This document shows, piece after piece, positions 11,315 to 59,054 of a stretch of 64,000 bases of DNA (position 1 is the first letter of the stretch; every line of letters starts with the position of its first letter). Origin of the DNA: Candidatus Aminicenantales bacterium. GTDB lineage: Bacteria > Acidobacteriota > Aminicenantia > Aminicenantales > UBA4085. The DNA lies in the NCBI GenBank assembly GCA_049515535.1, contig JBEKTZ010000003.1:124001-188000 (forward strand). Direction: 5' to 3'. Made by a program: the position numbers and the translations under genes. The notes beneath the pieces are model-generated. The model did no database searches, was not told the origin of the DNA, and saw only the letters and a list, made by a program, of their open reading frames with translations.

Positions 11315-11419
11315 GACGGCGGCCGGGGCCCCGGGCTTTACCCGGGGGTCCACTTCCGCCGTACTCGCCCGTGGATATAAGCCACGGGCGAGTGGCGAGC
11401 CGAAGACTCGTCCCTTGAT
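11315..11419 (-). repeat. Family A palindromic element, long form (105 nt), intergenic
   Basis: Near-identical to 18994-19098 and 27503-27607. Lies between convergent genes. Confidence 0.95.
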
Positions 11420-18199: not shown

Positions 18200-18328
18200 G
18201 TCAATTTGGAGGGGGAACCCGCTTCGCGTTTCCCCCTTCCAACGGGCACACCGTTTTGTACTCTAGGGTACAAAACGGCGTCGCCCTGCCTCCCTTTCTC
18301 GGGCGGGGCATGAAACCCCGCCCTGCGA
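18200..18328 (-). repeat. Family B modular structured repeat, copy 1
   Basis: About 100 nt near-identical to the reverse complement of 48693-48794. First hairpin resembles the one in the 44827-45010 copy. Confidence 0.9.
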
Positions 18329-18993: not shown

Positions 18994-19098
18994 CACGGCG
19001 GACGGGGCCCCGGGCTTTGCCCGGGGGTCCACTTCCGCCGTACTCGCCCGTGGATATAAGCCACGGGCGAGTGGCGAGCCGAAGGCTCGTCCCTTGAT
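18994..19098 (-). repeat. Family A palindromic element, long form (105 nt), intergenic
   Basis: Near-identical to the other long copies. Lies between divergent genes. Confidence 0.95.
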
Positions 19099-24441: not shown

Positions 24442-26445
24442 ATGAATCCAAGGAATGATCCAAAGAATTTGATCGCCTTTTCCATGCTCGTTCTGATGGC
24501 CCTCGCCGCCGGCTGCGCCGGGCACAAAAAAGATTATCCGGTCACGCCCGTGAGCTTCACCCAGGTCCGGGTCAACGACGCTTTCTGGGCGCCGAAGCTC
24601 GAAACGAATCGAGCCGTGACCGTGCCTTTCGCCCTGCAGAAAAACGAAGAGACCGGCCGCGTGGACAATTTCCGAAAGGCCGCGCGCTTGATGGCCGGCG
24701 CTTATCAGGGCAAGCGCTATAACGATTCGGATGTCTATAAGGTCATGGAGGGCGCGGCGTATACTCTGATGCTCCATCCGGACCCGCAGCTCAAGAAGCG
24801 GCTCGACGACCTGATCGCCGTCATCGGCAAGGCCCAGGAGCCGGACGGCTATCTTTATACGACGCGCACGATCGATCCCGGAAATCCGGCGCCGGGAGCC
24901 GGCAAAGAGCGCTGGTCCAACCTGCGCGTGAGCCACGAGCTCTACAACGTCGGCCACATGTATGAAGCCGCCGTGGCCCATTTCCAGGCGACGGGCGAGC
25001 GGAGTTTCCTGGACGTCGCGATCAAGAACGCCGACCTTCTTGTCCGCACGTTCGGGCCCGGAAAGCGCCGCGGGTTTCCCGGCCACCAGGAGGTCGAGAT
25101 CGGCCTATCCAAGCTCTATCGCCTCACCGGCAATCCGGCCTATCTCGATTTGGCCAAATTCTTTCTCGACGAGCGAGGGCATTATTTCGGCGGCGAGAGG
25201 CACGACCCAAAAGATCCCTTCGCCGTCTACGACTCGGACGAATACCTGCAGAACCACAAGCCCGTCCTCGAGCAGGACGAAGCGGTCGGCCACGCCGTCC
25301 GGGCGATGTACATGTTTGCCGGCATGGCCGACATCGCGGCGCTCGGCGGATTTCCCGAGTACGTCCAAGCCATCGACCGCCTCTGGGAGAACGTCGTCGG
25401 GAAAAAGATGTATTTGACCGGCGGGGTGGGGGCGCGCGACACATCCGAGGCTTTCGGCGACGCTTACGAGCTTCCGAATGCGAGCGCCTACACTGAGACC
25501 TGCGCGGCCATCGGCAACGCCCTCTGGCAGGAGCGGCTGTTTCTGTTGCACGGCGACGCGAAATACGCCGACGCGCTCGAGCGCGTCATGTACAACGGCT
25601 TGATCTCCGGCGTCTCGCTCGACGGCATGTCGTTTTTCTATCAGAACCCGCTCGAATCGGCCGGCGGATACGGCCGCAGCGCGTGGTTCGAAGTCGCCTG
25701 CTGCCCGCCGAACATCACCCGCTTCCTGCCCTCGGTCCCAGGGTACGTTTACGCCGTGAAAGGCGAAGCGCTTTACGTGAATTTATTCATCGGAAACACG
25801 GCCGCGGTCGAGGTCAATGGGCGGACCATCGACCTCAAACAGGAGACGCGCTACCCCTGGGACGGCGCGGTCAAGATCGCGGTCGGACCCGATAAGCCGG
25901 TCGAATTCACGGTCAATGTCCGCATTCCCGGATGGGCTCAACATCGGCCCGTCCCGGGCGATCTTTATGAGTTCGCGGACACGAGCGATGAGCCGATCGC
26001 CCTGAGCATGAACGGCGCCGCCGTCTCGCTCGAGATGGACCGGGGCTACGCGCGGATCAAGCGAACGTGGAAGAAAGGCGACGTCATCGATCTCCTGCTG
26101 CCCATGCCGGTCCGCCGCGTCGTCGCCCATGCCTCCGTGAAAGCCGATGCCGGGAGGATCGCCCTCCAGCGCGGGCCGATCGTGTTTTGCGCCGAGGGGA
26201 TCGATAACGGAGGGAAAGTCCTGAACTTGGCCCTCTCCGATCGCGCCGTTTTCCGGGCCGAATTCCGGCCCGATCTTCTGAACGGCGTCGTCGTCCTCAG
26301 GGGGAAAGCCCGGACCGAGAACCCCTCTGAGGGCGGAAAGATTTCATTACCCAAAGAACGGGATTTCCTCGCGATCCCGTATTACGCCTGGGCCAACCGC
26401 GGCGCCGGCGAAATGGAAGTCTGGTTCCCGCGAATCAAGGATTGA
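24442..26445 (+). CDS. GH127 beta-L-arabinofuranosidase-like lipoprotein (paralog)
   Basis: Lipobox AAGC, DSDVYK, HELYNVGH, ETCA and ACCPPN motifs. Confidence 0.88.
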   Translation: MNPRNDPKNLIAFSMLVLMALAAGCAGHKKDYPVTPVSFTQVRVNDAFWAPKLETNRAVTVPFALQKNEETGRVDNFRKAARLMAGAYQGKRYNDSDVYKVMEGAAYTLMLHPDPQLKKRLDDLIAVIGKAQEPDGYLYTTRTIDPGNPAPGAGKERWSNLRVSHELYNVGHMYEAAVAHFQATGERSFLDVAIKNADLLVRTFGPGKRRGFPGHQEVEIGLSKLYRLTGNPAYLDLAKFFLDERGHYFGGERHDPKDPFAVYDSDEYLQNHKPVLEQDEAVGHAVRAMYMFAGMADIAALGGFPEYVQAIDRLWENVVGKKMYLTGGVGARDTSEAFGDAYELPNASAYTETCAAIGNALWQERLFLLHGDAKYADALERVMYNGLISGVSLDGMSFFYQNPLESAGGYGRSAWFEVACCPPNITRFLPSVPGYVYAVKGEALYVNLFIGNTAAVEVNGRTIDLKQETRYPWDGAVKIAVGPDKPVEFTVNVRIPGWAQHRPVPGDLYEFADTSDEPIALSMNGAAVSLEMDRGYARIKRTWKKGDVIDLLLPMPVRRVVAHASVKADAGRIALQRGPIVFCAEGIDNGGKVLNLALSDRAVFRAEFRPDLLNGVVVLRGKARTENPSEGGKISLPKERDFLAIPYYAWANRGAGEMEVWFPRIKD

Positions 26446-26497: not shown

Positions 26498-27643
26498 TCA
26501 GACGACCGTCTTTTTGCCCTCTTTCCGAAGTCGATATTGTCCTTCGATCCAGGCATAGGTCTTCCGCATGCCGACGCGCAGAGGCGTATCCGGCTCCCAG
26601 CCGAGAACGCGCTTGATCATGGTGTTGTCGCTGTTGCGGCCGGCGACACCTTTGGGCGCGGTCGGGTCGTATTTTCGCTTGAACATCGCTCCGGCGATCC
26701 CTTCGACGAGGCTGACGAGGTCTTTGACCGAAATGAGCTCGCTTGTGCCCAAGTTGATGGGTGTCGCGATCAGGCCGTCGAAATGGGTGATCATATCAAT
26801 GCCCTTGACGCAGTCGTCGATATACATGAAGCTCCGCGTCTGCGTCCCGTCGCCCCATATTTCGAGCTCTTTCTTGCCCTGGTCCTTGGCGGCGATGACC
26901 TTGCGGCAGAGGGCGGCCGGCGCTTTCTCGCGGCCGCCGTCCCAGGTGCCCCAGGGACCGTAGACGTTGTGGAAGCGGGCGATGAACGTCTGCATCCCCC
27001 GCTCGGCCCAATATTCCTGACAGAGCATCTCCGACACCAGTTTTTCCCAGCCGTAGCCCCGCTCGGCCATGGCCGGGTAAGCGTCCGACTCTTTGAGGGC
27101 CCGGACATTCGGGTCTTTCTGGAGATCGGTGTTATAGACGCAGGCCGAGGAGGAATAGAAATAGCGATCCACTCCGGCCCTGTAAGCGGATTCGATCATG
27201 TGCGTGTTGATGAGGACGCTGCGCAGACACTCGATGCGGAACCGCTCGATGAAGCCCATCCCGCCCATGTCGGCCGCGAGCTGATAAACCTCGCTCGCGC
27301 CTTCCACCGCCCGGCGGCAGTTTTTTTCTTGGCTCAGGTCGAGGCAGAGGCACTCGGCGCCCCGCACGCGCTGGTACCATTCGGACAGGGGCTTTTTGTC
27401 GACGGCGCGGATGCGGGTGAAGCCTTTATCATGAAAATAGCGGGCCAGTGACCCGCCGATGAATCCGCCGCCTCCGGCGATGACGATCTGGATGTCCTTG
27501 TCGACGGCGGACGGGGCCCCGGGCTTTGCCCGGGGGTCCACTTCCGCCGTACTCGCCCGTGGATATAAGCCACGGGCGAGTGGTGAGCCGGAGGCTCGTC
27601 CCTTGACCGCTTGTTTTTTCACGGGGGCTTTTTTCTCGGCCAT
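26498..27643 (-). CDS. NAD-dependent epimerase/dehydratase (GDP-mannose 3,5-epimerase-like) carrying an in-frame family A insert
   Basis: RBS ggagg, GGGGFIG, ADMGGMGFI, YGWEK, RFHNVYGP and REKAPAA motifs. Confidence 0.88.
   Translation of the reverse strand: MAEKKAPVKKQAVKGRASGSPLARGLYPRASTAEVDPRAKPGAPSAVDKDIQIVIAGGGGFIGGSLARYFHDKGFTRIRAVDKKPLSEWYQRVRGAECLCLDLSQEKNCRRAVEGASEVYQLAADMGGMGFIERFRIECLRSVLINTHMIESAYRAGVDRYFYSSSACVYNTDLQKDPNVRALKESDAYPAMAERGYGWEKLVSEMLCQEYWAERGMQTFIARFHNVYGPWGTWDGGREKAPAALCRKVIAAKDQGKKELEIWGDGTQTRSFMYIDDCVKGIDMITHFDGLIATPINLGTSELISVKDLVSLVEGIAGAMFKRKYDPTAPKGVAGRNSDNTMIKRVLGWEPDTPLRVGMRKTYAWIEGQYRLRKEGKKTVV
27503..27607 (-). repeat. Family A element, long form, in frame inside the epimerase
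   Basis: Encodes VKGRASGSPLARGLYPRASTAEVDPRAKPGAPSAV just before the Rossmann motif. Confidence 0.95.
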
Positions 27644-37142: not shown

Positions 37143-40116
37143 GATCCGCCGTCTTATCGGATTTCAGCCGTTTGATGACCTTGGGAGGTGCCGCGGATCG
37201 GTTCGTCCCGATGGTCGGCGCGGCTGCGCGAGGGCTTGAGGCCGCCGTGATCGAGAAGATACTATCGCTCATATCCGTGGGACTCCCGGTATCCGCCTCG
37301 CTGATTTGCACCAGGCAGATATCGGACACGGCATCCGGCACTATCCACTCGTAGGTCCCGTAATTTTCGGTTGAAGCCACGATTTCGACCCATGTCGTGC
37401 CGGCATCCGTCGAGTACTCGATTTTTACGTTCGTATCCACGCCCATCGATATCCAGGTGATGTTTTGCGTCGATCCTACGGTCCAGCTTTCACCGCCGTT
37501 CGGGGATGTCACGACGATGATCGGGGCGTCCGAGACCGTGAAAACCGCGTCGCTCGTATCCGAGGGATCCCCCGTTTCCGCCTCGCTGACGCGGATCAGG
37601 CCACTCGTGGATACCGCTTCCTCGGGCACGAACCAAGCGTAGGTTCCGTCATTTTCGGTCGACGACACAATCTCCGTCCAAGTCGTGCCGTCATCCGGCG
37701 AATATTCGATTTTCACGTTGCCGACTTTGCCCGACGTCAGCCAGGTGATGTTCTCTGTAAATCCCACGTGCCAGCTTTCTCCGCCGTTCGGAGACGTCAC
37801 GTCAACGGAGATTTCATTGATTTTAGCGACGAAGGCATCCCGGTTGCCGTTATAGGTCAGATCCGGGCCGGAAGTGACGGGAAAGGTCGTTTCCGTCGAA
37901 TAAGTATTTCCCGTCAGGTAGATATTTCCCGAACCATCCGTATCAAGGGCGATGCCCATGCCCAGGTCCGAGTTGGAACCGCCGACGTACCCGCAAAACT
38001 CGAGCGATGCGCCGGTGATGTCCACCTTCGCCACAAAAGCATCATAGCTGCCGCTGAGCGTCAAACTCGGGCCACCCTTGACAGGGAAGGTCCCTTCGGC
38101 CGAAGACGTATAGCCCGTGACGAAAGCGTAACCCCGGCCGTCCACCGCGATGCCGGTTCCGACGTCGTACCCGAGACCGCCGATGTATCCGCAATAGAGC
38201 AATGAATAGCCCTCGGCCCGGACCTTGGCCACGAAAGCGTCATAAAACCCGCCGTTATAAACCAGATCCGGACCCCCGCTCACGGGGAAGGAACTCGCGC
38301 TCGAGTCGTCTGTATATCCCGTGACATAAGCGCAGCCCGAGGGATCCACGGCGATCGCTGTTCCGACGTCTTCGCCGGACCCGCCGATGTACCCGCAATA
38401 CACAAGAGATGCGCCTTGCGGGTCCACCTTGGCCACAAAGGCGTCGAAGCCTCCGTTTTCGGTGATATCGGATCCGCCGGAGACCGGAAACGTGGACTCC
38501 GTCGAATTCGTGTATCCGGTGATATAGGCATTGCCCGAAGTGTCCACGGCGATGCCCCGGCCGTAATCCTGCAACGCACCGCCGATGTAGCCGCAATAAT
38601 CGAGGGCCGTGCCGTCGGCGTTGACCTTGGCCACGAAGGCGTCAAAGTTGCCGCCATGGATGAGCGACGGCCCCCCGACGACCGGAAACGTGGACTCCGT
38701 CGAATTCGTATATCCGGTGATATACGCGTTGCCCGAAGCGTCCACGGCGATGCCCCGGCCGTAATCCTGCAACGCACCGCCGATATAGCCGCAATAGTCG
38801 AGCGCCGTGCCCCCGGCGTTGACCTTGGCCACAAAGGCGTCATAGTTGCCACTGTGGATGAGGCTAGGTCCCTTGGCGACCGGAAAGGTGCGTTGCGTCG
38901 AATTCGTGTAGCCCGTGACATAAGCATTGCCGGAGGCGTCCACCGCAATGCCGTATCCGTAATCATCGCCCGAACCGCCGATATAGCCGCAGTAATTCAG
39001 GGCCGTCCCATCCGCGGTCAATTTGGCCACGAAAACATCCGTGTTTCCGCCGTTGAAGGTCCGATCCGGCCCGACCTTGGCCGGAAATCCGGGAGCCGTC
39101 GAATAGGTGTAACCCGTGACGTAGGCGCAACCGTCTTTATCCGCCGCAATGCCGTAGCCGTAATCGTAACTCGGGCCGCCGATATAGCCGCAATAAATCA
39201 AAATCATCGGATCCAGGACGAGGGTCCGGGTCCGGTCGTAGCTCCCGACCGAAAAACCGTAGGTGACGGCCGCCCCTTCATTTTCTCCGGCGGTGTCATG
39301 GTCCGCGCTTCCAACAGCATGATCCAGGATCTTATAGGCCAGCGGCACGTTCATCCGATTTCCGGAATTTTCCTGGTAAGCGACGGGAACGCCGTCCTCG
39401 AATCCGCCCGCCGGCGTCGAGACGGCCAATCTTCCCGCGTCATTAATCGCAACGGAACTTGCGCCCCGGTAGGTTAAACGGATTCGCGACGGGTCCGCGC
39501 CGGGATGAACGATGAATTCGTATTTCAGCTTATCCATGGTTCCCGAATAGACGAGGTCGATCCCCGGCCAGAGATTGGCATAAACGATCCGGGAATATGG
39601 AGAAAGCCCTGTCTTCCAGTTTCCGCGCTCGCCCTGGAAATACGAAATCACGGTTCCCGTTTTGTCCGTCCCGACGGGTTTCACCGCGGGAGCGGCATCC
39701 ACGAAATCCAGCTTCACCACCCAACGCGAAGCTTCTCCAGGGCGGCGGTCCGTCAAGGGCGCCAGAGCGTTCATTCGGTCCGGCGGGATTCTTTTCCCTG
39801 GCTCTCCGCTTTCCGGGATTCCCGCCGCCTTCTTCTCGTCCGCTCCGGCCAGAGCGAAGGTCACCCCGTTAGCCCCGAAGTAGATCGCTTTATCTTTTCC
39901 CTGGATATAATAATCGACTTCGCCGTCCAGTTGGCCCATGTTTGGAATGAGAACGACCGGCATGTCGCCGAAATGAGGCTGGACCTGAAGGATTCTATTC
40001 GCGAGGGCGGAAGGCGGATGAGAAATCCGCCCCGCGACCGCGGGGATTCCGTTCCCGGGGGTCAAAAAAGAAATACAAGCTATCAAGAAGGTGCCGGCTA
40101 GGACTCTTTTTCCCAT
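37135..40116 (-). CDS. Secreted SBBP-repeat beta-propeller protein with two C-terminal Ig-like (SPNGGE) domains
   Basis: Seven ~66-aa units of YCGY(I/V)GG...G.GIA.D..G.AY.TG.T...DAFVAK, and TSPNGGESW twice. Confidence 0.88.
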   Translation of the reverse strand: MGKRVLAGTFLIACISFLTPGNGIPAVAGRISHPPSALANRILQVQPHFGDMPVVLIPNMGQLDGEVDYYIQGKDKAIYFGANGVTFALAGADEKKAAGIPESGEPGKRIPPDRMNALAPLTDRRPGEASRWVVKLDFVDAAPAVKPVGTDKTGTVISYFQGERGNWKTGLSPYSRIVYANLWPGIDLVYSGTMDKLKYEFIVHPGADPSRIRLTYRGASSVAINDAGRLAVSTPAGGFEDGVPVAYQENSGNRMNVPLAYKILDHAVGSADHDTAGENEGAAVTYGFSVGSYDRTRTLVLDPMILIYCGYIGGPSYDYGYGIAADKDGCAYVTGYTYSTAPGFPAKVGPDRTFNGGNTDVFVAKLTADGTALNYCGYIGGSGDDYGYGIAVDASGNAYVTGYTNSTQRTFPVAKGPSLIHSGNYDAFVAKVNAGGTALDYCGYIGGALQDYGRGIAVDASGNAYITGYTNSTESTFPVVGGPSLIHGGNFDAFVAKVNADGTALDYCGYIGGALQDYGRGIAVDTSGNAYITGYTNSTESTFPVSGGSDITENGGFDAFVAKVDPQGASLVYCGYIGGSGEDVGTAIAVDPSGCAYVTGYTDDSSASSFPVSGGPDLVYNGGFYDAFVAKVRAEGYSLLYCGYIGGLGYDVGTGIAVDGRGYAFVTGYTSSAEGTFPVKGGPSLTLSGSYDAFVAKVDITGASLEFCGYVGGSNSDLGMGIALDTDGSGNIYLTGNTYSTETTFPVTSGPDLTYNGNRDAFVAKINEISVDVTSPNGGESWHVGFTENITWLTSGKVGNVKIEYSPDDGTTWTEIVSSTENDGTYAWFVPEEAVSTSGLIRVSEAETGDPSDTSDAVFTVSDAPIIVVTSPNGGESWTVGSTQNITWISMGVDTNVKIEYSTDAGTTWVEIVASTENYGTYEWIVPDAVSDICLVQISEADTGSPTDMSDSIFSITAASSPRAAAPTIGTNRSAAPPKVIKRLKSDKTADPT
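38483..39076. repeat. 198-nt tandem coding repeats within the SBBP gene
   Basis: Units start at 38483, 38681 and 38879. The first two are highly similar at DNA level. Confidence 0.8.
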
Positions 40117-46429: not shown

Positions 46430-47464
46430 GTGATGATGCTTCCGACGATCGAATGGCGCGAAGGCAAGGTCATCATGATCGACCAGCGCAAGCTGCCCGG
46501 CGAGGAGGTCTATATCGAATGCCGGACCCATGAGGACGTGGCTGAGGCCATCGAAAAGATGGTCATCCGCGGAGGTCCGGCCATCGGCGTGGCCGCGGCG
46601 TTCGGCCTCGCCCTGGGTTTTTCGCGGATCAAGGACGCCGCCGGCGCGAACGCCGAGTTCGACCGCATCTCCGCCCGGCTTTCCAGGACCCGTCCTACCG
46701 CGCGCAATCTCTTCTGCGCCCTGGAGCGGATGAAGGCGGTTCAGACGAAGCATAAGGGTCTCCCGCTCGACGAACTCAAGCGGCGATTGATCGATGAAGC
46801 CCTGACCATCGAACGGGAGGACGCCGACATCAATCGCCGGATCGGACGATTCGGCGCCGATCTCGTCAAGGACGGGGACACGATCCTGACGCACTGCAAC
46901 GCGGGCGGCCTGGCCACGGCCGCTTACGGGACGGCCGTCGGCGTCATCCGCGCCGCTTTCGAACAGGGCCGGAAGATCCGCGTATTCGCCGACGAAACGC
47001 GGCCATTTCTTCAGGGCGCGCGCCTCACGGCCTGGGAGCTCGAGAAACTCGGCGTCCCGTATTTCGTTATAACGGACAGCATGGCGGGCTGGATGATGAA
47101 GACAGGAGAGATCAGCCTGGCGGTCGTCGGCGCGGACCGGATCGCGGCGAACGGCGATACGGCCAATAAGATCGGCACCTATTCCGTGGCCGTTCTGGCA
47201 AAGGAGAACGGCATCCCGTTCTACGTGGCCGCGCCGCTGAGCACGTTCGATTTCGCCCTCGAGACGGGCGATCGGATTCCCATCGAAGAGCGTTCGCCGC
47301 AGGAAGTCAAGGAGATCAACGGCAAGCTGATCACGCCGCCGGGCGCGAGGGTCCACAACCCCGCCTTTGACGTGACGCCTGCCCGTTTGATCACGGCGAT
47401 CATCACCGAAAAGGGCGTCATACGACCGCCCTACGAGAAGACCCTGGCCGTTTTGAAGAAATGA
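46430..47464 (+). CDS. mtnA: S-methyl-5-thioribose-1-phosphate isomerase
   Basis: [28 protein letters not shown] and NPAFDVTP motifs. Confidence 0.95.
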
Positions 47465-47480
47465 GGAAACATCCTTTTTC

Positions 47481-47546
47481 CACGGCGGACGGGGCCTCGG
47501 GCTTTGCCCGGGGGTCCACTTCCGCCGTGAAGGCTCGTCCCTTGAC
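47481..47546 (-). repeat. Family A element, short form (66 nt), intergenic
   Basis: Equals the long form minus the 39-nt internal hairpin module. Confidence 0.95.
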
Positions 47547-47591: not shown

Positions 47592-48611
47592 ATGCGCCTG
47601 TTAGCCATCGAAACATCCTGCGACGAGACCGCGGCGGCCGTTCTCGACGGAGACGCGTCGATCCTGAGCAATATCGTCCTCTCCCAGGACGAGATCCACG
47701 CGCCCTTCGGCGGCGTTGTCCCGGAGCTGGCCTCGCGACAACACCTGAAATCGATCGATTTCATCGTCCGCGAAAGCCTGGCCGCGGCGGGCGTCGCTCT
47801 CGGGCAAATCGATCATTTTGCGGTGACCCAGGGACCGGGCCTCATCGGCTCGCTGCTCGTCGGCCTCTCTTTCGCCAAAGGGCTGGCCTATTATCACCGG
47901 AAGCCGCTCGTCGGCATCGACCATGTCCAGGCCCATATCGAGGCCGCGTTCCTCGAAAACAAGGATATCGCTTTTCCGGTCCTTGCCCTGATCGTCTCCG
48001 GCGGACACACGTCGCTCTTCTTTCTGAAGAAAAAGCTCAGTTTCAAACTCCTCGGCCGGACGCGCGACGACGCCGCCGGCGAAGCGCTCGACAAGATCGC
48101 GAAATTCCTTGACCTGGGATATCCCGGGGGGCCCGTCATTCAGAGGATCGCCGAGTCGGGCGACCCGGGCCGATTCGAATTCGCGCTGCCCCGCATGACC
48201 GACCGCAGCCTGGATTTCAGCTTCAGCGGATTGAAAACCGCGGCCATCCGGATCATCCGGGAAAACAAAATCTCCAAGGACGATCGCCGGTTCCCGGATT
48301 TTCTGGCCTCCTTCGAGAACGCTGTCGTCCGCGCGCTCCTCGGGAACATGGTCCTGGCCGCCGAACGGACGGCGCCGAAATCCCTTCTTATCTGCGGCGG
48401 CGTCGCGCGGAACAAGCGGCTCCGCCTGGAGTTCGAACGGCGGGCGCAAGCCGCGCATCTGCGATCGTACATTCCTTCGCCCAAGCTCTGCACGGACAAT
48501 GCGGCCATGATCGGGGGGTTGGCCCTGGCCCGGATCGCTGCCGAAAAGAAGGGGCGGAGAAAACCCTTATTTTCGCTCGACTTGGACGCCTATCCCCGAA
48601 TGCCGGTTTGA
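47592..48611 (+). CDS. tsaD: tRNA N6-adenosine threonylcarbamoyltransferase
   Basis: IETSCDET, GGVVPELASR, HVQAH, SGGHT, DDAAGE and TDNAAMI motifs. Confidence 0.96.
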   Translation: MRLLAIETSCDETAAAVLDGDASILSNIVLSQDEIHAPFGGVVPELASRQHLKSIDFIVRESLAAAGVALGQIDHFAVTQGPGLIGSLLVGLSFAKGLAYYHRKPLVGIDHVQAHIEAAFLENKDIAFPVLALIVSGGHTSLFFLKKKLSFKLLGRTRDDAAGEALDKIAKFLDLGYPGGPVIQRIAESGDPGRFEFALPRMTDRSLDFSFSGLKTAAIRIIRENKISKDDRRFPDFLASFENAVVRALLGNMVLAAERTAPKSLLICGGVARNKRLRLEFERRAQAAHLRSYIPSPKLCTDNAAMIGGLALARIAAEKKGRRKPLFSLDLDAYPRMPV

Positions 48612-48794
48612 CAAGCGGGGCACCGCTCGTAGAGGGATCCGAGGGGGAGCCGCCCCCTTGGCCTTAGTCGCAGTCCTATGCGGAGCATAGGGCGAGAAAG
48701 GGAGGCAGGGCGACGCCGTTTTGTACCCTAGAGTACAAAACGGCGTGTCCGTTGGAAGGGGGAAACGCGAAGCGGGTTCCCCCTCCAAATGGAC
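48608..48794 (+). repeat. Family B modular structured repeat, copy 3
   Basis: Bounded by TTGAC...TGGAC. Begins at the tsaD stop codon. Confidence 0.9.
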
Positions 48795-48853
48795 GGCGCG
48801 GATAACGGGGACTTCACGTTTTTTTCCGGGAGCACGATCCGGCCCGGTTTGTT

Positions 48854-51340
48854 TCAGCGGAGAGGGACGATCTGCAGGAGATACGGGTCGACTTTCAAGT
48901 TTTCGCCGGATTTTTTCACGAACTCGAAATTGATCTCGTAGACATAGAGATTTCGGAAAAGGACATAGGCTTCCGGCTTCAGGATCAATTCCTTCTTTTC
49001 GCGCGTCGTCCGGCCTTCGAAGACCGGCCGGTCGAAGAGGGCGGCTTTCACGTCGTGCTCACCGGCCTCCGAGCCGAAGACGAGTTTGATTTTTTCGAGC
49101 TTTTCCCTGGAGCCGAAGACGACGTCATAGGCGCGGTCGTCGTGGAGATAGAGTTCGCCTTCATTTTTCGCCACGACGTCTTTTCCCAGCGGGAAAAGAT
49201 AAAGCCCGATCTGCTGCTGCGTGGAATATGTGAAGATCTGAGCGGGGTAGAGAACGGTCCTGGGAAATAAGATCCAGAGCCAAACCGCCGCGCCCAGAAG
49301 GCCGACGGCCGCCCCCAAACGGAGGCCGGCTCTCTCCGCGGCGGACGGGGCCCCGGGCTTTGCCCGGGGGTCTACTTCCGCCGCGAAGGCTCGTCCCTTG
49401 ACCGCCGGCCGCCTGGCTTTGAAGACGACATAGGCGATGACGAACAAGACGATGGCTGCGATCCAGGCATAGTTCGGCCCATAGCCGAGATTATTGATTT
49501 TGATGAAGGACGGCAGGTATTGCGGCAGAAAAATATGCATGTTGCTCAGGAAGATAAAGAACTCGCCGGCCCTCTGCGTGACTTCGTGGGTCGTGGGCTG
49601 GTAAAGAAACGAGGGATGAAAGAGCAAGAGCGCCGTCATCGCCAACGTCGCCAGCCCGGCCGCCCAGAACAGGGTCGTAAAGATCTTGCGGCGGTTGAAC
49701 GCCAGAAAATAGCCGATCAGCAGCGCGCCGATCCAGGACAGCGGAGCCAGCACGCGCGCCTGGGGACAGGCGCCCTGCCGGTGGGTGAAGAACGCGTAAT
49801 TCAAGAGAAAAGGGAGCGACAAAAAGAGGAGAATAAAGAGATCGCGCTTCGATTTCCGAAAAACCTCGACGAGGCCGAGAAACATGAAAAAATACAGGGG
49901 CGAATAGAGGAGCAGGCCGTCGCGCTGGTCCAGAAAATAATCGAAGAACGTGTCCGACCGCGCCCAGAGAGGGTAGCTGAGCCAGGCTTCCTTGAGGGCC
50001 TGGGCCTGTTCGGGCGAGATGATGCCCTCATAGACGGCGAACGGCGAGATCGTGCCGTACAGGCTGAATACGAAATAATAGAAAAGGACCGCGCCGAGGA
50101 GGGGGAAGAGGAGAAACAGAAGGATCCTGGCCCTCATTTTGTGCCGGGTCCATAGAAAATACAGGCAGACGAGGAGAAGCGGCCAGAAAATGAGGTTATA
50201 TTTCAGCCCGAACCAGAAAAACGTGCCGAGCAGGAATCCCAGGAAGAGAAGAAGCCCGTTGGAGAGAGGCCTGCCGGAAGAAATTTTCCGGAAAACGTAG
50301 ATCGAAAAGAGGGCGATCGGGATTTCCGGATAAAGATGGACGGCGTAAAAGAGGACGGGCGTGCTGAAGGAATAGAAGAGCCAGATCGTCAAGGCCAGGT
50401 TTTCCTTGCGCCAAAGCTCTCGGGCAAGGAGAAAGATCTGCAGCCCGAGGAGAACCGCCCAGATGGAAAGACTGCTTTTTAGGACGAACGTCAGCCACTT
50501 GCCCTTGAGGAGCTGGCCGACTCCGTACCAGGGCAGCATGAGCACCGAGATCCCCGGCAGGTTGATCGGATAGATGTAGTCTTTTCCTTTTTTTCCGTAC
50601 CGGCCGTAGATGCCCAGTCTCAGGCGGGGGTTGTTTTCCCGGGAATAAAAATGAAAATAATCCTCGTTGGCGTAATTGTTGGCCAGGTTGATGTCCTTGT
50701 CGTAGAGGAGGCTGTGGGTCGTGAGGAGGTAATAAGGCTCATCGCCGGTGAAGGTGACGTCCTGCGACACGAGCGCGAACGCGCAGAGGTTGTAAATGAT
50801 GAATGCCGCGAAGAAGAGAACGACGAGTTTTTTCCGGAGGGAGAGGGCGTGGAATCGGGCCGTCCATTTTTTGAGAGCGTTGGGCCGGTCCTTGAGCAGC
50901 GGCGAAAGCCCGGCGATCTTGAGATAGAAAACGGCGAGGGCGACGAAAACGCCGAGCAGGCCGAGGCGGACCTGGAAATCCGATCGCGTCATGTAGTGCG
51001 CGTGAAGGAGCGGGGACAGCAGGAAGAAAAGGAACGGCGCGGCGGCGTGCGCGTTGAGTCTGAGCCGCTCTTCGAGTTCGGCGCCGAGCTTTTTCGTCTC
51101 GATCCTTGCGGAAATCCTTATCCCCGCCGTGAGCAGGATGAAGAAAAAAGCCCAAAAAAAGAAAAACAGGATCAGGGGCGGACCAACCATCCGAAATCCG
51201 TGGCTGAGGATCGTATAGGACCCCGATTGAAGAATGCTGTTGAGATAAGTCGAGAGGCCGGCCGATCCGAATAAGGCACGGATCGTCGCCGGCAGACCGC
51301 GCCTGCCTTTCATGGCTTGAGGTATATTCGACTTGCCCAT
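48854..51340 (-). CDS. Polytopic membrane protein, putative GT-C glycosyltransferase, carrying an in-frame family A insert
   Basis: GDEPYYLL acidic loop motif, DQRDGLL and many transmembrane segments. Paralog of 52148-54523. Start uncertain. Confidence 0.7.
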   Translation of the reverse strand: MGKSNIPQAMKGRRGLPATIRALFGSAGLSTYLNSILQSGSYTILSHGFRMVGPPLILFFFFWAFFFILLTAGIRISARIETKKLGAELEERLRLNAHAAAPFLFFLLSPLLHAHYMTRSDFQVRLGLLGVFVALAVFYLKIAGLSPLLKDRPNALKKWTARFHALSLRKKLVVLFFAAFIIYNLCAFALVSQDVTFTGDEPYYLLTTHSLLYDKDINLANNYANEDYFHFYSRENNPRLRLGIYGRYGKKGKDYIYPINLPGISVLMLPWYGVGQLLKGKWLTFVLKSSLSIWAVLLGLQIFLLARELWRKENLALTIWLFYSFSTPVLFYAVHLYPEIPIALFSIYVFRKISSGRPLSNGLLLFLGFLLGTFFWFGLKYNLIFWPLLLVCLYFLWTRHKMRARILLFLLFPLLGAVLFYYFVFSLYGTISPFAVYEGIISPEQAQALKEAWLSYPLWARSDTFFDYFLDQRDGLLLYSPLYFFMFLGLVEVFRKSKRDLFILLFLSLPFLLNYAFFTHRQGACPQARVLAPLSWIGALLIGYFLAFNRRKIFTTLFWAAGLATLAMTALLLFHPSFLYQPTTHEVTQRAGEFFIFLSNMHIFLPQYLPSFIKINNLGYGPNYAWIAAIVLFVIAYVVFKARRPAVKGRAFAAEVDPRAKPGAPSAAERAGLRLGAAVGLLGAAVWLWILFPRTVLYPAQIFTYSTQQQIGLYLFPLGKDVVAKNEGELYLHDDRAYDVVFGSREKLEKIKLVFGSEAGEHDVKAALFDRPVFEGRTTREKKELILKPEAYVLFRNLYVYEINFEFVKKSGENLKVDPYLLQIVPLR
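49337..49402 (-). repeat. Family A element, short form, in frame inside the membrane protein
   Basis: Encodes VKGRAFAAEVDPRAKPGAPSAA between two hydrophobic segments. Confidence 0.95.
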
Positions 51341-51405
51341 TTCTGTCAAGAGGCCTCGAATTTCAAAACTCGCCCGAAGAAATGAATTTATGGTATAAGG
51401 TACCC

Positions 51406-52185
51406 ATGGACCCGACGCCGAAGCGGACACAGAAGGTGATCGTCGTCATGCCCGCGTTCAACGCCGAGAAGACGCTCGAACGGACGCTCAACGACATTCC
51501 CCGCGAATGGGTGGACGAGATCATCCTCGTCGACGATCGAAGCCGGGACGGAACGGTGGCGCTGGCCCGCCGGCTGGGCTTGCGCGTGTTCGTCCATGAG
51601 CGGAACAGGGGGTACGGACGAAACCAGAAGACCTGCTACACCGAAGCGCTGAATCTGGGCGGCGACATCATGATCATGGTCCATCCGGACCACCAATACG
51701 ATCCCATGGTCATTCCCCAACTCGTCCGGCCTTTGCTCGACGGGGAATGCGACGCGGTGTTCGGGTCAAGGATGCTGGGCGGCCGTCCGCTCGAGGGCGG
51801 CATGCCCAAGTGGAAGTACCTGGCCAACATTTTTCTGACGGCGATCGAGAACGCGACGTTCTATATGTATTTAACGGAATACCATTCCGGGCTCCGCGCC
51901 TATTCGCGCCGCTATCTCGAGACCGTGAATTTCATGGCGAATTCCGACGATTTTGTCTTCGATTCCGAGGTCATCGCCCAGGGCGTGCTCCATAAGATGC
52001 GGATTCGCGAGATCCCGATCGCGACCCGCTACTTCCCCGAGGCCTCGCAAATCGGACTCGGCCGGAGCCTCGTCTATGGTTTTTCGATCCTCGTGACCCT
52101 CGTCAAATTCAAGCTCCATAAAAAAGGGTGGGCGAGGTTCGTGATGTTCAACGGACGGGCTGGATCGATAGAGTGTAAGGGTTGA
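51406..52185 (+). CDS. GT2 glycosyltransferase (polyprenol-phosphate sugar synthase-like)
   Basis: VMPAFNAE, VDDRSRDGT, NRGYG, HPDHQY and GSR motifs. Confidence 0.88.
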   Translation: MDPTPKRTQKVIVVMPAFNAEKTLERTLNDIPREWVDEIILVDDRSRDGTVALARRLGLRVFVHERNRGYGRNQKTCYTEALNLGGDIMIMVHPDHQYDPMVIPQLVRPLLDGECDAVFGSRMLGGRPLEGGMPKWKYLANIFLTAIENATFYMYLTEYHSGLRAYSRRYLETVNFMANSDDFVFDSEVIAQGVLHKMRIREIPIATRYFPEASQIGLGRSLVYGFSILVTLVKFKLHKKGWARFVMFNGRAGSIECKG

Positions 52186-54523
52186 CGCCGGTCCGGACGT
52201 CCGATGTTTTTTCCAAATGGACCGTGAGATCGTAGAGGTATGACGTTTTCCAGCGGTAGGCTGGCGGATTATCCAGAATTCTGTCCTTCATCTCCCGCCG
52301 CGTGACGTCGGCGAAGAGGGGGGCGTCGAACATCTTCAGCTCCAGATGATAATCGCCTTGCAGGGAGCCGAACTCGATTTTGAGCTTGTCGAAGGGCTTG
52401 CCCGAGGCATAATAAAAATGATAATCCCGATTGTCTTCAACCAGTGAAAATCCGCCGCCTTCCCTCAAAAGGGCCGCGCGGGAAAGGGAATAAAAAGTCA
52501 TCTTTTCGCCGGAGGGGAGGGCGACTTTGCGGGGCGGGCCGAGCGTGAGCCGCGGATAAAAAGCGAACCAGATGAAAAACAGAATCAACCCCGCGGCCGT
52601 CAGCGCTCGATGCTGAGCGAATCTCAAGGAAAACGCATGGTTCCGGACGAGAAGATCGGTCGCTACGAACGCCAGAATCAGTGCGGGCCAGACGAAATTC
52701 GGCAACCAGCGCCATTCCGCGATTTTGATGAAGGAGGGGAGGATGTTCGGAATATAGAAATGAAGATGGCTGAGAATGTAGAAGAGATCCCCCCCGCGTT
52801 CCGTGGTTCCGGATGTTGTCTCTTGATAAAGGGCGAGGGGATTCCAACAAAGGAGCCAGACATTGATGAAGCTGAGGCCGATCGCGAAATTCATCAAATA
52901 AGCGAAAATCTTTTTCCCGTTATAAGCCAGGAAATAGCCGAGGAGGATCGCCGGTCCCCAGGCGACGGCGACGAGAGGTCGGGCCTGGGGAGCATAGCTT
53001 CCCCTCTGGGTGAGGAATGCCCAAATGAGGACATAGGGTCCGGTGATGAACATCAGAAGCCAAAAATCCGCGCTTTTCTTCCGAATCATTTCGACGAGTC
53101 CGAGAAAGGCGAAAAAATAGATCGGGGCGTAAAACAGGAGGCCGTCCCGCTGGTCCAGGAAATAGTTGAGGAGCGTGTCCAACCGGAACCGGAAAGGGAT
53201 TCCCGTGAAAAGGGACTTGAGATATCCAATGGTTTGTTTCTCATCCATGGCCACTTGGATGGGGAGGGCCGTCGGGTTGAGCGAGCCGTAGAGCGAGTAC
53301 TGGAAATAGAAATACGGGATAAAAACGACCGCCGCCGGCCCCAGGAAATAAAGAAGATCCCAACGGAGACGATGCTTTTTGATGAGGACCCACAGGGCAT
53401 AGAGACAAAGAGGCCCCAGGATGAAGAAATATTTCAGGGCATGGAACCAAATGAACGAAAACAGGAGGAATCCGCAGAGGACGAGCCTGGGCCTTGACAG
53501 CCGGGGGGAAAACCGGAGCAGCCGGAACACCGTGAGCGAGAAAAGGGCGATGACGATTTCGGAATAGACGTGGATCGAATAGAAAAAGATGGGCGACGTG
53601 AAACTGAAAAGAAGCCAGATTCCCAGGGCGAGACGTTCCTTCCCCCATTCCTGCCGGGCGAAGAGATACATCTGGACGCCGAGCAGGGCTCCGAAAAGAC
53701 TCATCCCGAAGCGGACGAGGAAAAGCAGGGCGCTCTTTCCAAGCCACGTTCCCAGCGCGTAGAAGGGAAGCATCAAAAAGGAGATCCCCGGGGAATGGAA
53801 CGAATACTGGCTTCCAGGGGTCCGGCCGGGCATGGCATGGGCGCGGACGGTCGCCCCGGGAGGCAGATAACGCGAATAATCCTGCGCCGCGTAGTTATTG
53901 GCCAGGTCGAAGTCGCCGTCCTCGAGGAGGCTGTGAGTGATCAGAAGATAATGGGGCTCGTCGCCGGAAAAGAAGATCCCTCGCGAGGTCATAATCATGG
54001 ATCCGGCGTTATATATGACAAGGGCGGCGAGAAAGAGAAGGAGCATCCGACGGGGCACGGAAAGCGAGAAAAATTTGCGCGTCCACAGAAGCCAAGGCGG
54101 CGCTTGCTCCCGGACTTCGTGAACGGCCTGGACGGCCTTGAGATAGAGAATGGAAAAAATTACGGCCGTCAGGAATAATCCCAGCCTCTGGCGCAGATCA
54201 TCGAACGTCAAGTAGTGGACGAGCGTCAAGGGTGTCAACGCGAAAAAAAGGAGAGGAAAATACGTCGAGAGGTCCGCATCGAGCGCTTTTTCATAGGGGA
54301 TCCGGAAGGCCTTCGCGATCACGGCCGAAAACAGAGCCCAGACTCCGTTGAGAAGGATGAACACGGCCGCCGCGGACAGGATCAACGATCCCGGACCGAT
54401 GCCGTAAACGTGGCGGAGAAAGGTGAACGAAGGGACCTGGCCGCGGCATTGAAGAAAGAGAGCCAGGCCAAGGGCGCATAGAAAGAGAAATATCTGGTGG
54501 CCGATTTTTTGCGCCTTTGACAT
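52148..54523 (-). CDS. Polytopic membrane protein, putative GT-C glycosyltransferase
   Basis: GDEPHYLL, DQRDGLL and LPSFIKI motifs shared with 48854-51340. Confidence 0.7.
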   Translation of the reverse strand: MSKAQKIGHQIFLFLCALGLALFLQCRGQVPSFTFLRHVYGIGPGSLILSAAAVFILLNGVWALFSAVIAKAFRIPYEKALDADLSTYFPLLFFALTPLTLVHYLTFDDLRQRLGLFLTAVIFSILYLKAVQAVHEVREQAPPWLLWTRKFFSLSVPRRMLLLFLAALVIYNAGSMIMTSRGIFFSGDEPHYLLITHSLLEDGDFDLANNYAAQDYSRYLPPGATVRAHAMPGRTPGSQYSFHSPGISFLMLPFYALGTWLGKSALLFLVRFGMSLFGALLGVQMYLFARQEWGKERLALGIWLLFSFTSPIFFYSIHVYSEIVIALFSLTVFRLLRFSPRLSRPRLVLCGFLLFSFIWFHALKYFFILGPLCLYALWVLIKKHRLRWDLLYFLGPAAVVFIPYFYFQYSLYGSLNPTALPIQVAMDEKQTIGYLKSLFTGIPFRFRLDTLLNYFLDQRDGLLFYAPIYFFAFLGLVEMIRKKSADFWLLMFITGPYVLIWAFLTQRGSYAPQARPLVAVAWGPAILLGYFLAYNGKKIFAYLMNFAIGLSFINVWLLCWNPLALYQETTSGTTERGGDLFYILSHLHFYIPNILPSFIKIAEWRWLPNFVWPALILAFVATDLLVRNHAFSLRFAQHRALTAAGLILFFIWFAFYPRLTLGPPRKVALPSGEKMTFYSLSRAALLREGGGFSLVEDNRDYHFYYASGKPFDKLKIEFGSLQGDYHLELKMFDAPLFADVTRREMKDRILDNPPAYRWKTSYLYDLTVHLEKTSDVRTGVNPYTLSIQPVR

Positions 54524-57087: not shown

Positions 57088-58180
57088 CGCGGGCAAGGAG
57101 TGGCGGGGAGGGCAGAGGCAGTCGCTTTTTCTCGCCCGAGAGCTAAGAAAAATGGGCTATCCTTTCAAGTTCGTCGTCCAGCCCGACAGCCCGCTTCATC
57201 AGAAGGCCGCCGAGGAGGGGCTCCCTGTCTTTCCGCTCCGGATCAAGAGCGAGCTGCACCTCGGGGCGTTGTATCGATTGTCCCGGGCCATGAAACGCGC
57301 CGGCTGCACGCTGGCTCATTTTCACGACGCCCACGCGGTCTCGGTCGGCCGGCGCGCCGCGAGCCGGGCCCGCGTTCCCATCCGGGTCATCTCCCGGCGC
57401 GTGGATTTCCCGCTGAAAAAAAACCCGTTTTCCCGTAAAAAATACAAGGACGACGTGGACGTCATCATTGCCATTTCCGAGGGCGTGAAGAGCGTTTTGA
57501 TCAAAGGCGGCATCGACCCGGCGGCGATCGAAGTCGTACCGTCAGGTATCGATTTCTCGCCGTTCGACGAGGTCAAGTCCAGGGACTTCCTCCGCAAGGA
57601 GTTCCGTTTCGCTCCGGACGATTATCTCGTCGGCATCGTCGCGGCGCTCGAGGACCATAAAGGGCACCGGGATCTGATCGAGGCAGCGCGGTGGATCAAG
57701 TTTCACGCGCCGAGGGTCAGGATCATCATCGTCGGTAAGGGCTCGCTCGAAATGGAGCTCGACCAGAAGGCGCGCGCTCTTCAAGTGGACGACGTGGTTT
57801 ATTTTCTGGGATTCCGGGAGGACATCCCGCGCATTCTCGCCTCGCTCGATCTGTTCGTCCTGTCGTCCCACCTGGAAGGCCTGGGGACGTCGATCATGGA
57901 CGCCATGGCCTGCCGGCTGCCGGTCGTGGCGACCGAAGTCGGCGGAATTCCCGAGGTCGTCATCGACAATGAGACCGGCCTCCTCGTTCCTCCGCGCAAC
58001 CCGCAGGCCCTGGCCGAAGCCATCGTCCGCCTCTACTACGAAAGGCTCCTGGCCGCCCGCCTCGGCAACCGCGGCTACGAGGTCGTCCACGAAAAGTTCT
58101 CGGCCGAGGCGATGGCCCGCCGCATCATCGCCGTCTACGAAAGAATAGCCGCCCGAAAAGGAATCCGACTTCGTGGATAA
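57068..58180 (+). CDS. GT4 glycosyltransferase
   Basis: WRGGQRQ, HKGH, EGLGTSIMDAM and GGIPE motifs. TTG start inferred. Confidence 0.88.
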   Translation: MSLFQIDAGKEWRGGQRQSLFLARELRKMGYPFKFVVQPDSPLHQKAAEEGLPVFPLRIKSELHLGALYRLSRAMKRAGCTLAHFHDAHAVSVGRRAASRARVPIRVISRRVDFPLKKNPFSRKKYKDDVDVIIAISEGVKSVLIKGGIDPAAIEVVPSGIDFSPFDEVKSRDFLRKEFRFAPDDYLVGIVAALEDHKGHRDLIEAARWIKFHAPRVRIIIVGKGSLEMELDQKARALQVDDVVYFLGFREDIPRILASLDLFVLSSHLEGLGTSIMDAMACRLPVVATEVGGIPEVVIDNETGLLVPPRNPQALAEAIVRLYYERLLAARLGNRGYEVVHEKFSAEAMARRIIAVYERIAARKGIRLRG

Positions 58181-59054
58181 GGTGAACGTCCGCCCGCTGC
58201 GAAGTTTCGGGGATTACGAAGGCTGCGTCGAAATCCAACGCGAGGTCTGGGGCCATGCCGATCTCGACATCACCCCCGTCCATCAGTTCTGCATTTCCGT
58301 CCAGACGGGCGCCGTTCTCCTGGGGGCGTTCGTCGGAAAAAAGTTGGCCGGCTACGTCTATTCCTTCCCGGCCGCATTCGGCCGGAAACACTGTCAACAT
58401 TCGGACCATCTCGCCGTCCTTCCGGACTATCAGGGCTACGGCATCGGCAAGAAACTGAAACAAGCCCAACGGGAGGAAGCCTTGAGGGCCGGCTACGATC
58501 TCGTGACCTGGACCTATGACCCGATGCAGGCCCGCAACGCCAATCTCAATCTCCACACGCTCGGCGCCGTGGGCAAGACCTACCTCGACGATTTTTACGG
58601 ACGCACTCCGAGCCTGAGCCTCGATACCGGCGTTCCGACCGACCGGCTGCTCGTCGAATGGTGGATCAAATCGGCGCGGGTCCGCCGCAAAATGAACCGC
58701 AAAGACGAGCCGCCGGATACGGGCCGGTTCGCTGCGGCCGTCAAGGGACGAGCCTTCGCGGCAGAAGTGGAACCCCGGGCAAAGCCCGGGGCCCCGGCCG
58801 CCGTCGAGCGGAAGCCGGGCGGAAAATATCCGGACATCGCCCCGGCGCGGCCGATCCTGACTCTCAAAGGGCCGCACATCCTGGTCGAATTGCCGAAGAA
58901 CATTCGCGATCTCAAGCCGTTGCCCGGCGCGATCGGCCGCTGGCAAAAAGCCGTCCGAACGGCCCTCAAGCATTATTTTTCCCATGGCTACCGGCTCGAG
59001 GATTTCATCTTCGGCGAGCGGTGCTATTACGTCCTCAAGAAGTCGGGATCTTAA
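58173..59054 (+). CDS. GNAT family acetyltransferase carrying an in-frame family A insert
   Basis: YQGYGIGKKLK, WTYDP, NANLN and TDRLLVEW motifs. Confidence 0.85.
   Translation: MDKVNVRPLRSFGDYEGCVEIQREVWGHADLDITPVHQFCISVQTGAVLLGAFVGKKLAGYVYSFPAAFGRKHCQHSDHLAVLPDYQGYGIGKKLKQAQREEALRAGYDLVTWTYDPMQARNANLNLHTLGAVGKTYLDDFYGRTPSLSLDTGVPTDRLLVEWWIKSARVRRKMNRKDEPPDTGRFAAAVKGRAFAAEVEPRAKPGAPAAVERKPGGKYPDIAPARPILTLKGPHILVELPKNIRDLKPLPGAIGRWQKAVRTALKHYFSHGYRLEDFIFGERCYYVLKKSGS
58740..58805 (+). repeat. Family A element, short form, in frame inside the GNAT gene
   Basis: Encodes VKGRAFAAEVEPRAKPGAPAAV. Confidence 0.95.

Follow-up and report, generated by a model that had tools for sequence, protein, structure and literature searches.

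Introduction

Rickettsia palindromic elements (RPEs) are palindromic repeats that occur in frame inside open reading frames (ORFs) (PMC10969869). Insertion sequences of the IS200/IS605 type have no inverted repeats, make no target duplication, insert 3' of a tetra- or pentanucleotide and carry hairpins at their ends (PMC7290912). Here we describe a repeat that resembles both systems, found in a stretch of 64,000 nucleotides (nt) from a Candidatus Aminicenantales bacterium (GenBank assembly GCA_049515535.1, contig JBEKTZ010000003.1, positions 124,001 to 188,000 of the forward strand). This whole stretch is called the window, and coordinates refer to it. A 63-nt hairpin repeat lies in frame inside the gene of a membrane protein, protein A. 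It is very probably a non-autonomous mobile DNA element that was inserted in this gene and is translated with it.

Like RPEs, the element is a multi-copy palindromic repeat found in frame in unrelated, often essential, genes, where reading through it yields a conserved peptide at positions that the protein fold can accommodate (PMC10969869). It differs from what is described for RPEs in its phylum, Aminicenantes; in its unit of 63 or 102 nt, compared with about 100–150 nt; and in the share of coding copies, which is at least 8 of 124 here and nearly half in some RPE families. Here, the tetranucleotide target is defined and the empty sites are exact. We use RPE-like as the name of a functional class, based on in-frame palindromic behavior and not on sequence family. 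Literature searches returned no published account of such repeats in Aminicenantes, with mentions of repeats or palindromes inside related papers left unchecked.

The locus is a well-documented case of a known phenomenon, not a new principle. It extends Rickettsia-type selfish palindromes inside genes to an uncultured phylum, including a copy in the essential glutamyl-tRNA synthetase. It also supplies a natural before-and-after pair, a single gene at 91–98% identity with and without the mobile element, and this pair fixes the element ends, the target motif and the absence of a target duplication. The practical warning is that such inserts inflate loops, split profile matches in two and break metagenome assemblies at the repeat.

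Empty and filled alleles

Near-identical wild DNA was available from four metagenome runs (X2, X3, X4 and X6). The features needed to read the comparison are as follows.

48854..51340, minus strand: protein A, the host gene; ORF of 828 amino acids (aa) from this start
49339..49401, element orientation plus: 63-nt short-form copy of the hairpin repeat, delimited by natural empty alleles and by the family length
49335..49338, plus strand: TCCG, the tetranucleotide directly 5' of the element and presumed target motif, kept in the empty X4 allele
52148..54523, minus strand: paralog B, ORF of 791 aa, used in an earlier note on this sequence as a stand-in for the empty site

The X4 contig (1011 nt; 13 differences in 560 nt, about 97.7% identity) aligns to 48900–49338 and then to 49402–49522. 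It joins 49338 to 49402, omitting exactly 63 nt, and is an empty allele. The joint is ambiguous by 1 nt, and 49340–49402 is an equally good placement. A second metagenome locus, L131, has a clean 63-nt gap in the DNA at the same site. Contigs from X2, X3 and X6 break within the repeat yet hold its first or last 27–30 nt at the protein A locus; these are filled alleles, as is metagenome locus L130.

The proteins give the same picture. Five of the 8 members of the 90%-identity cluster of protein A carry an insert identical to that of the window (828, 828, 819 and 819 aa, plus a 427-aa C-terminal fragment that spans it). Two members, P0125 and P0126 (798 aa; 91% and 94% identity), lack exactly 21 residues. 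The last, P0124 (831 aa, 95% identity), has a diverged in-frame insert with several substitutions and 12 further residues within it. Because the gaps in the empty alleles are exactly 63 nt or 21 residues, the indel comprises 21 codons, read from the minus strand as VKGRAFAAEVDPRAKPGAPSA (residues 647–667 of the 828-aa reading). GC content climbs to 0.75–0.83 across 49280–49400.

The earlier note, made from the window sequence, had proposed a clean in-frame insertion at a structurally tolerant site, with paralog B providing the empty site. The insertion itself is borne out by the natural empty alleles and by structural models with and without the insert, described below. The note's anchor-to-anchor counts, taken from the translations, are also right: protein A has 62 residues from FV to FPR and paralog B has 40 from FV to YPR. 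Its element of 22 codons has to be corrected to 63 nt or 21 codons (49339–49401). Removing the real element leaves 41 residues and not exactly 40 as claimed; the empty alleles and four of seven comparable orthologs also have 41. By BLASTP, proteins A and B are 37% identical (E 3e-151), and B has 7+14+1 = 22 gap positions just past the shared LPSFIKI motif. The loop of paralog B is 1 residue shorter than the orthologous empty site, so the match to its 40 residues is a one-residue coincidence. Paralog B holds up as an approximate empty site only, the proper one being the orthologous allele.

Orthologs in other genera are 59–73% identical to protein A. Counted from PSF to LYP, 70 residues are present at four ortholog loci (L012, L013, L014 and L019), 84 at two and 82 at one, compared with 91 in the window. 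The alignment thus gives a short loop at four loci and not the loop normally about 20 aa longer that the earlier note had named as the contrary outcome. The other contrary outcome it had named, a gap away from the element ends, did not occur either, as gap and repeat-family ends agree to the base.

The same loop varies in other ways among the orthologs. Two orthologs from one genus (L010 and L011, in genomes G014 and G008) have 14 extra loop residues that appear unrelated to the insert. We considered whether these are a decayed repeat copy, and DNA alignment gave no convincing similarity to either repeat family. In an ortholog from another genus, the loop contains a different, perfect palindrome (L018, G001:C8:37003-37053). 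This palindrome belongs to a second family of repeats, marked by a 14-nt terminal motif and present as 12 pairs in G001 and as about 6 small copies in the source genome.

The repeat family

The 3.45-Mb source assembly gave 140 blastn matches to the repeat, which resolve into 124 distinct copies. Of 59 short-form copies, 51 have a length of 63 nt; of 51 long-form copies, 44 have 102 nt, and this form carries an extra 39-nt hairpin module. The element consists of a GC-rich hairpin and, behind it, a short conserved tail whose last bases are TTGA(C); conservation starts four bases ahead of the first hairpin. Five other matches to the insert lie within the window:

58741..58803, minus strand: short copy, in frame inside a 293-aa ORF (58173..59054, plus strand)
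47483..47545, plus strand: short copy between the plus-strand ORFs 46430..47464 and 47592..48611
11317..11418, plus strand: long-form 102-nt copy, from window matches and the family alignment
18996..19097, plus strand: long-form 102-nt copy that folds into three hairpins in a row (-79.5 kcal/mol, z -8.2)
27505..27606, plus strand: long-form 102-nt copy, from window matches and the family alignment

Folded as RNA, the insert reaches -40.8 kcal/mol (z -3.3) when the coding strand is used and -45 (z -4.2) for the plus strand. Across the copies folded, hairpin z-scores range from -3.3 to -8.2.

In other genomes, exact cores of the element were found at 62 loci (20 of 63 nt, 40 of 102 nt and 2 irregular), nearly all of them, in the species collection, in Aminicenantes metagenome-assembled genomes (MAGs). 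The element is present in 10 of 27 genomes of the family and in 6 of 10 genera. Within these 27 genomes, the genus that has the closest empty ortholog showed no copy, and viral contigs gave no matches to the element. Exact cores also occur once or twice in MAGs labeled Spirochaetes, Acidobacteria, Sedimentisphaerales and Eubacteriales (L079, L097, L098, L104 and L117). These could be mis-binned Aminicenantes contigs or real spread.

Several candidate roles for the repeat were examined and set aside. No Rfam family matched the window at the gathering score, and sub-threshold matches on a long copy (e.g. PyrR, 29.4 with a threshold of 54) are chance matches. A promoter function for the TTGAC tail is unsupported here, with no sigma-70-like site in a promoter scan of 48700–50000. 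For a role in 5' untranslated regions, a start codon lies close behind the element in 15 of 108 copies and on the other side in 7 of 108, which is too weak a difference.

Target site

The presumed target tetranucleotide, to the left of the element, is already present in the empty alleles, as TCCG in X4 and as TCCA in L131. Among the 124 copies, the left-flank tetranucleotides include TCGA (38), TCCA (23), TCAA (8) and TCCG (6); TCGA, TCCA and TCAA together flank 69 of 124, and the family consensus is TC(G/C)A. Three long copies are nested in short copies directly after TCCA, and their removal restores an intact short copy. No target-site duplication is present at any of five sites, namely the two empty sites known from DNA (X4 and L131) and the three nested copies. 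Terminal inverted repeats are also absent: the 5' end, CGGCGG, and the 3' end, CCCTTGA, are non-complementary. From the two empty sites and the three nested copies, the family inserts without target duplication, at the position directly 3' of a tetranucleotide of the TC(G/C)A type. Hairpin strength varies along the element. The 5' hairpin is strong, the 3' tail of the short form yields no more than a weak 4-bp stem, and three hairpins occur in the long form.

Copies probably translated in other genes

We counted an ORF as coding if a family match lay N-terminal of the element, or spanned it, in the same open frame. Of 56 ORFs spanning a copy, at least 8 are real genes that read through the element, protein A being one of them. 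Glutamyl-tRNA synthetase (GltX) has 21 gap columns when aligned to 8jpv_A. In aldehyde:ferredoxin oxidoreductase (AFOR), residues 327–351 are unmatched against 9mqx_D. The isopropylmalate (IPM)/aconitase large subunit has a full-length NF001614 match with the insert lying within it. Further coding copies lie in ORFs with M28-peptidase, phosphodiesterase (Phosphodiest), glycosyltransferase family 2 (GT2) and GNAT domains. The GNAT case is the window ORF 58173..59054 (plus strand), where the Pfam match precedes the element on its N-terminal side and shares its open frame, and the element is read in the same element frame as in protein A. Where the orientation is opposite, there are five well-supported copies, and in all of them the frame used is the one encoding VKGRAF....

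Two kinds of ORF were not counted as coding: those spanning copies without family support (e.g. of 946 aa and 1038 aa), and those with a family match only downstream of the element (BamA, a thioredoxin-reductase-like protein and a histidine kinase).

One further ORF has an odd domain order. A 652-aa open frame (L040, G000:C2:209885-211840, minus strand) contains the C-terminal half of phosphoglycerate mutase (profile positions 216–504 at residues 92–388), followed directly by a 102-nt repeat copy and further on by an N-terminal iPGM segment (511–641). The order may reflect tandem genes or a rearrangement at the repeat.

Structure, topology and selection at the loop

Two membrane helices bracket the insertion, both assigned by DSSP on the model together with a hydropathy peak:

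49415..49480, minus strand: membrane helix ahead of the loop, residues 621–642
49271..49342, minus strand: last membrane helix, after the loop, residues 667–690

The filled protein A was modeled with AlphaFold2 from a 78-sequence alignment, with a predicted local distance difference test (pLDDT) score of 89.3 and a predicted TM-score (pTM) of 0.88. Residues 643–666 form a coil, with pLDDT below 50 at 647–656, and the last membrane helix leads into a C-terminal beta domain (residues 700–826). The model of the empty-allele protein P0126 (pLDDT 90.0, pTM 0.88) has the same two helices with a 9-residue coil between them. Structure prediction, which the earlier note had proposed as a check, thus gives the same fold, with the same helices at the same confidence, with and without the insert. 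The note had also placed the insert in a loop between two hydrophobic helices. This agrees with hydropathy peaks at about 626–640 and 679–692, a trough at 650–666, and modeled helices at 621–642 and 667–690 with coil between. The insert is predicted to be a low-confidence, unstructured coil between the last two membrane helices.

The C-terminal domain of enzymes with the GT-C fold is periplasmic. As protein A is predicted to have this fold (see below), its loop should be cytoplasmic, facing away from the active site.

The protein A gene is still under purifying selection. Strain differences comprise 29 synonymous and 8 non-synonymous changes (n = 37), and these include the 159 codons past the insert. 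The 37 were classified among 40 of 51 strain differences; left out of the classes were 49373 (other repeat copies), 49761 (a second contig, covering only 49725–49798) and 49745.

Proposed mobilization and comparison with known elements

Insertion directed to a motif, with neither duplication nor inverted repeats, makes the element resemble those derived from IS200/IS605. We propose that an HUH/Y1-type transposase of the IS200/IS605 or RAYT (REP-associated tyrosine transposase) kind would act on it in trans and move it as single-stranded DNA; this would make it similar to palindrome-associated transposable elements (PATEs). We regard this mechanism as an even call. At protein A, the element is a precise in-frame insertion in loop-coding sequence and adds 21 residues. 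Survival in genes would be favored because the length is divisible by three and stops are absent from most frames, and insertions in tolerant loops may be nearly neutral, an explanation already put forward for RPEs.

The resemblance to PATEs and to other derivatives of IS200/IS605 that retain only the ends includes the absence of terminal inverted repeats and of target duplication (PMC3119063, PMC7290912). Also as described for PATEs, the element has a near-terminal palindrome, targets the position directly 3' of a conserved 4-nt motif, has no room for a transposase gene, exists as highly homogeneous copies and inserts copy into copy (PMC3119063). Unlike for PATEs, searches for tnpA and tnpB found no IS200/IS605-type parent with the same ends. 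The hairpin of the element begins at its first base, and the short form is without a clear second hairpin. In the source genome, TnpB was not found, and the only two Y1 genes are both tied to other palindromes.

Some of these features weigh against the proposed account, in which the repeat was mobilized by an HUH/Y1 enzyme into the protein A gene and is translated there in a cytoplasmic loop. In the short form only the 5' end bears a strong hairpin, unlike in IS200/IS605 elements, which have one at each end. Searches found no autonomous partner: of 9 Y1_Tnp loci in six genomes (2 in the source genome and 7 in five repeat-rich relatives), none has the element at its flanks; two other palindrome families, or nothing, lie beside them. 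TnpB (PF07282, PF01385) was not detected in this 94%-complete genome, nor was any copy of the element with an internal ORF, including among copies that have no 3' end. Translation of the insert is deduced from the open frame and the selection pattern, and the cytoplasmic side of the loop from GT-C topology. Since no partner was found, we claim likeness of mechanism and not membership.

Repetitive extragenic palindromic (REP) sequences and bacterial interspersed mosaic elements (BIMEs) provide another comparison. As described for these, the element is a GC-rich hairpin in more than 100 copies, mostly intergenic and lineage-specific (PMC2817692). In the REP/RAYT system, a RAYT gene between two inverted REPs is a defining feature (PMC2817692), and no such gene was found between two inverted copies of the element. 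In the source genome, two other palindrome families do show a RAYT-like flanked arrangement.

[quoted passage not shown] The element is similar to these in being small and non-autonomous and in being able to fuse in frame with host ORFs (PMC10969869). It differs from MITEs in that their terminal inverted repeats, and the target-site duplications usual for them, are absent.

The two other palindrome families are arranged as follows. The second repeat family, found in the L018 loop, flanks a Y1_Tnp-domain ORF in the source genome (G000, C13) as 27-nt perfect inverted repeats, at 1358–1384 and 2400–2426 of locus L060; the arrangement is RAYT/REP-like. At two other loci, L059 (G000:C9:107983-108345) and L061 (G014), a 20-nt perfect palindrome with 23 genome matches stands on either side of a strong Y1_Tnp match (E 1e-39). 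The L059 copy, in the source genome, has an in-frame TAA; the L061 copy has none.

A broader reading would make the repeat a gene-compatible selfish element, whose units of 63, 102 and 39 nt are kept multiples of three, with most frames kept free of stops, and which can then persist within genes. It would be moved by a trans-acting HUH-type enzyme unlinked to any copy, and it would be active now, because filled and empty alleles coexist in wild populations. It would thus act as a steady source of 21- or 34-residue loop insertions in Aminicenantes proteins, with one frame strongly favored. We hold this reading only tentatively and consider it rather doubtful as a whole. If true, loop insertions would be arising continually across the Aminicenantes proteome.

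Alternative explanations

The element could be ancestral in protein A, with the empty alleles (X4, L131, P0125 and P0126) produced by precise excision or deletion. HUH-type excision is precise, and at first sight the empty X4 groups with the filled X6, as they have in common 17 alleles that differ from the window. We polarized these 17 sites with five outgroup orthologs, and the outgroup bases agree with the X4/X6 allele in 48 cases and with the window allele in 18. Most of the shared alleles are therefore ancestral, no clade of X4 and X6 is implied, and a single gain suffices; precise excision in X4, suspected from the shared alleles, was dropped after this analysis. The loop is also short in orthologs of four other genera, and within the 90% cluster it is the empty members (91% and 94% identity) that diverge most. 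Ancestral presence is in our judgment very unlikely.

We give a similarly small chance to co-option of the insert, in which the peptide or the RNA hairpin would have become functional in protein A, e.g. in regulation or in an interaction at the cytoplasmic face. A common reading frame in five of five well-supported opposite-orientation coding copies would fit such a role, as would retention and extension of the insert in the strain at 95% identity. However, natural alleles at 91–98% identity do without the insert, it is predicted to be disordered, and the same peptide occurs in unrelated enzymes. The frame bias itself can mirror which peptides are tolerated.

A further alternative is that the insertion inactivated the gene, leaving a pseudogene or a gene split in two with the repeat untranslated. 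An mRNA hairpin of -40 kcal/mol could indeed hinder ribosomes. Against this, the frame is open across 828 codons, and the 29 synonymous and 8 non-synonymous strain differences take in the 159 codons after the insert. The 95%-identical strain retains a diverged, in-frame version with 12 further residues, and both the C-terminal domain and the last helix are needed for the high-confidence model. We consider inactivation most improbable.

Finally, ordinary lineage-specific loop expansion by slippage or duplication, with no mobile element, has next to no chance of being correct: loop length does differ among genera, and two relatives have 14 extra residues with no detectable repeat similarity, but the 63 nt are 95–100% identical to dozens of copies in the source genome and in other genera, and the indel ends are the ends of the repeat family.

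Host gene and neighborhood

Protein A has an alternative start, given by one protein-collection source, that yields 819 aa from MKGRRGLP at window position 51313. It is predicted to be a membrane glycosyltransferase of the GT-C fold with a C-terminal beta-sandwich domain. In a Foldseek search with the protein A model, ranks 1–7 and 9–37 are GT-C enzymes by title (Emb, ALG12/9/3, OST/PglB/AglB, ArnT, Pmt, AftB and PimE). The best E-value is 4.6e-7, and the TM-scores of the GT-C matches are only about 0.3–0.5. The GT-C feature set, a multi-helix membrane domain followed by a soluble C-terminal domain, is present in the model. Sequence and profile searches of Pfam, NCBIfam and the PDB gave no family match for protein A. 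It is accordingly not assigned to a named family (PMT_2, GT22, GT87, ArnT or others), and for PMT_2/GT22/GT87 there are language-model leads only (scores 0.96–0.97).

A further glycosyltransferase gene lies between the two paralogs:

51382..52185, plus strand: GT2-family glycosyltransferase gene between paralogs A and B (PF00535, E 6.4e-23)

Its product is likely the maker of the lipid-linked sugar donor.

The window has other repeated stretches. A 102-nt inverted repeat pair at 48693–48794 and 18200–18301 is 97% complementary and belongs to a different repeat family; each arm contains a 34-nt palindrome, and the arm at 48693–48794 sits just past the protein A stop codon. Tandem repeats of about 198 nt at 37979–39195 (4–6 copies, 64–83% identity) look like a repeat-domain coding region. 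The segments 19519–20380 and 24722–25610, about 5.2 kb apart, are 70–78% identical over about 860 nt and are probably paralogous genes.

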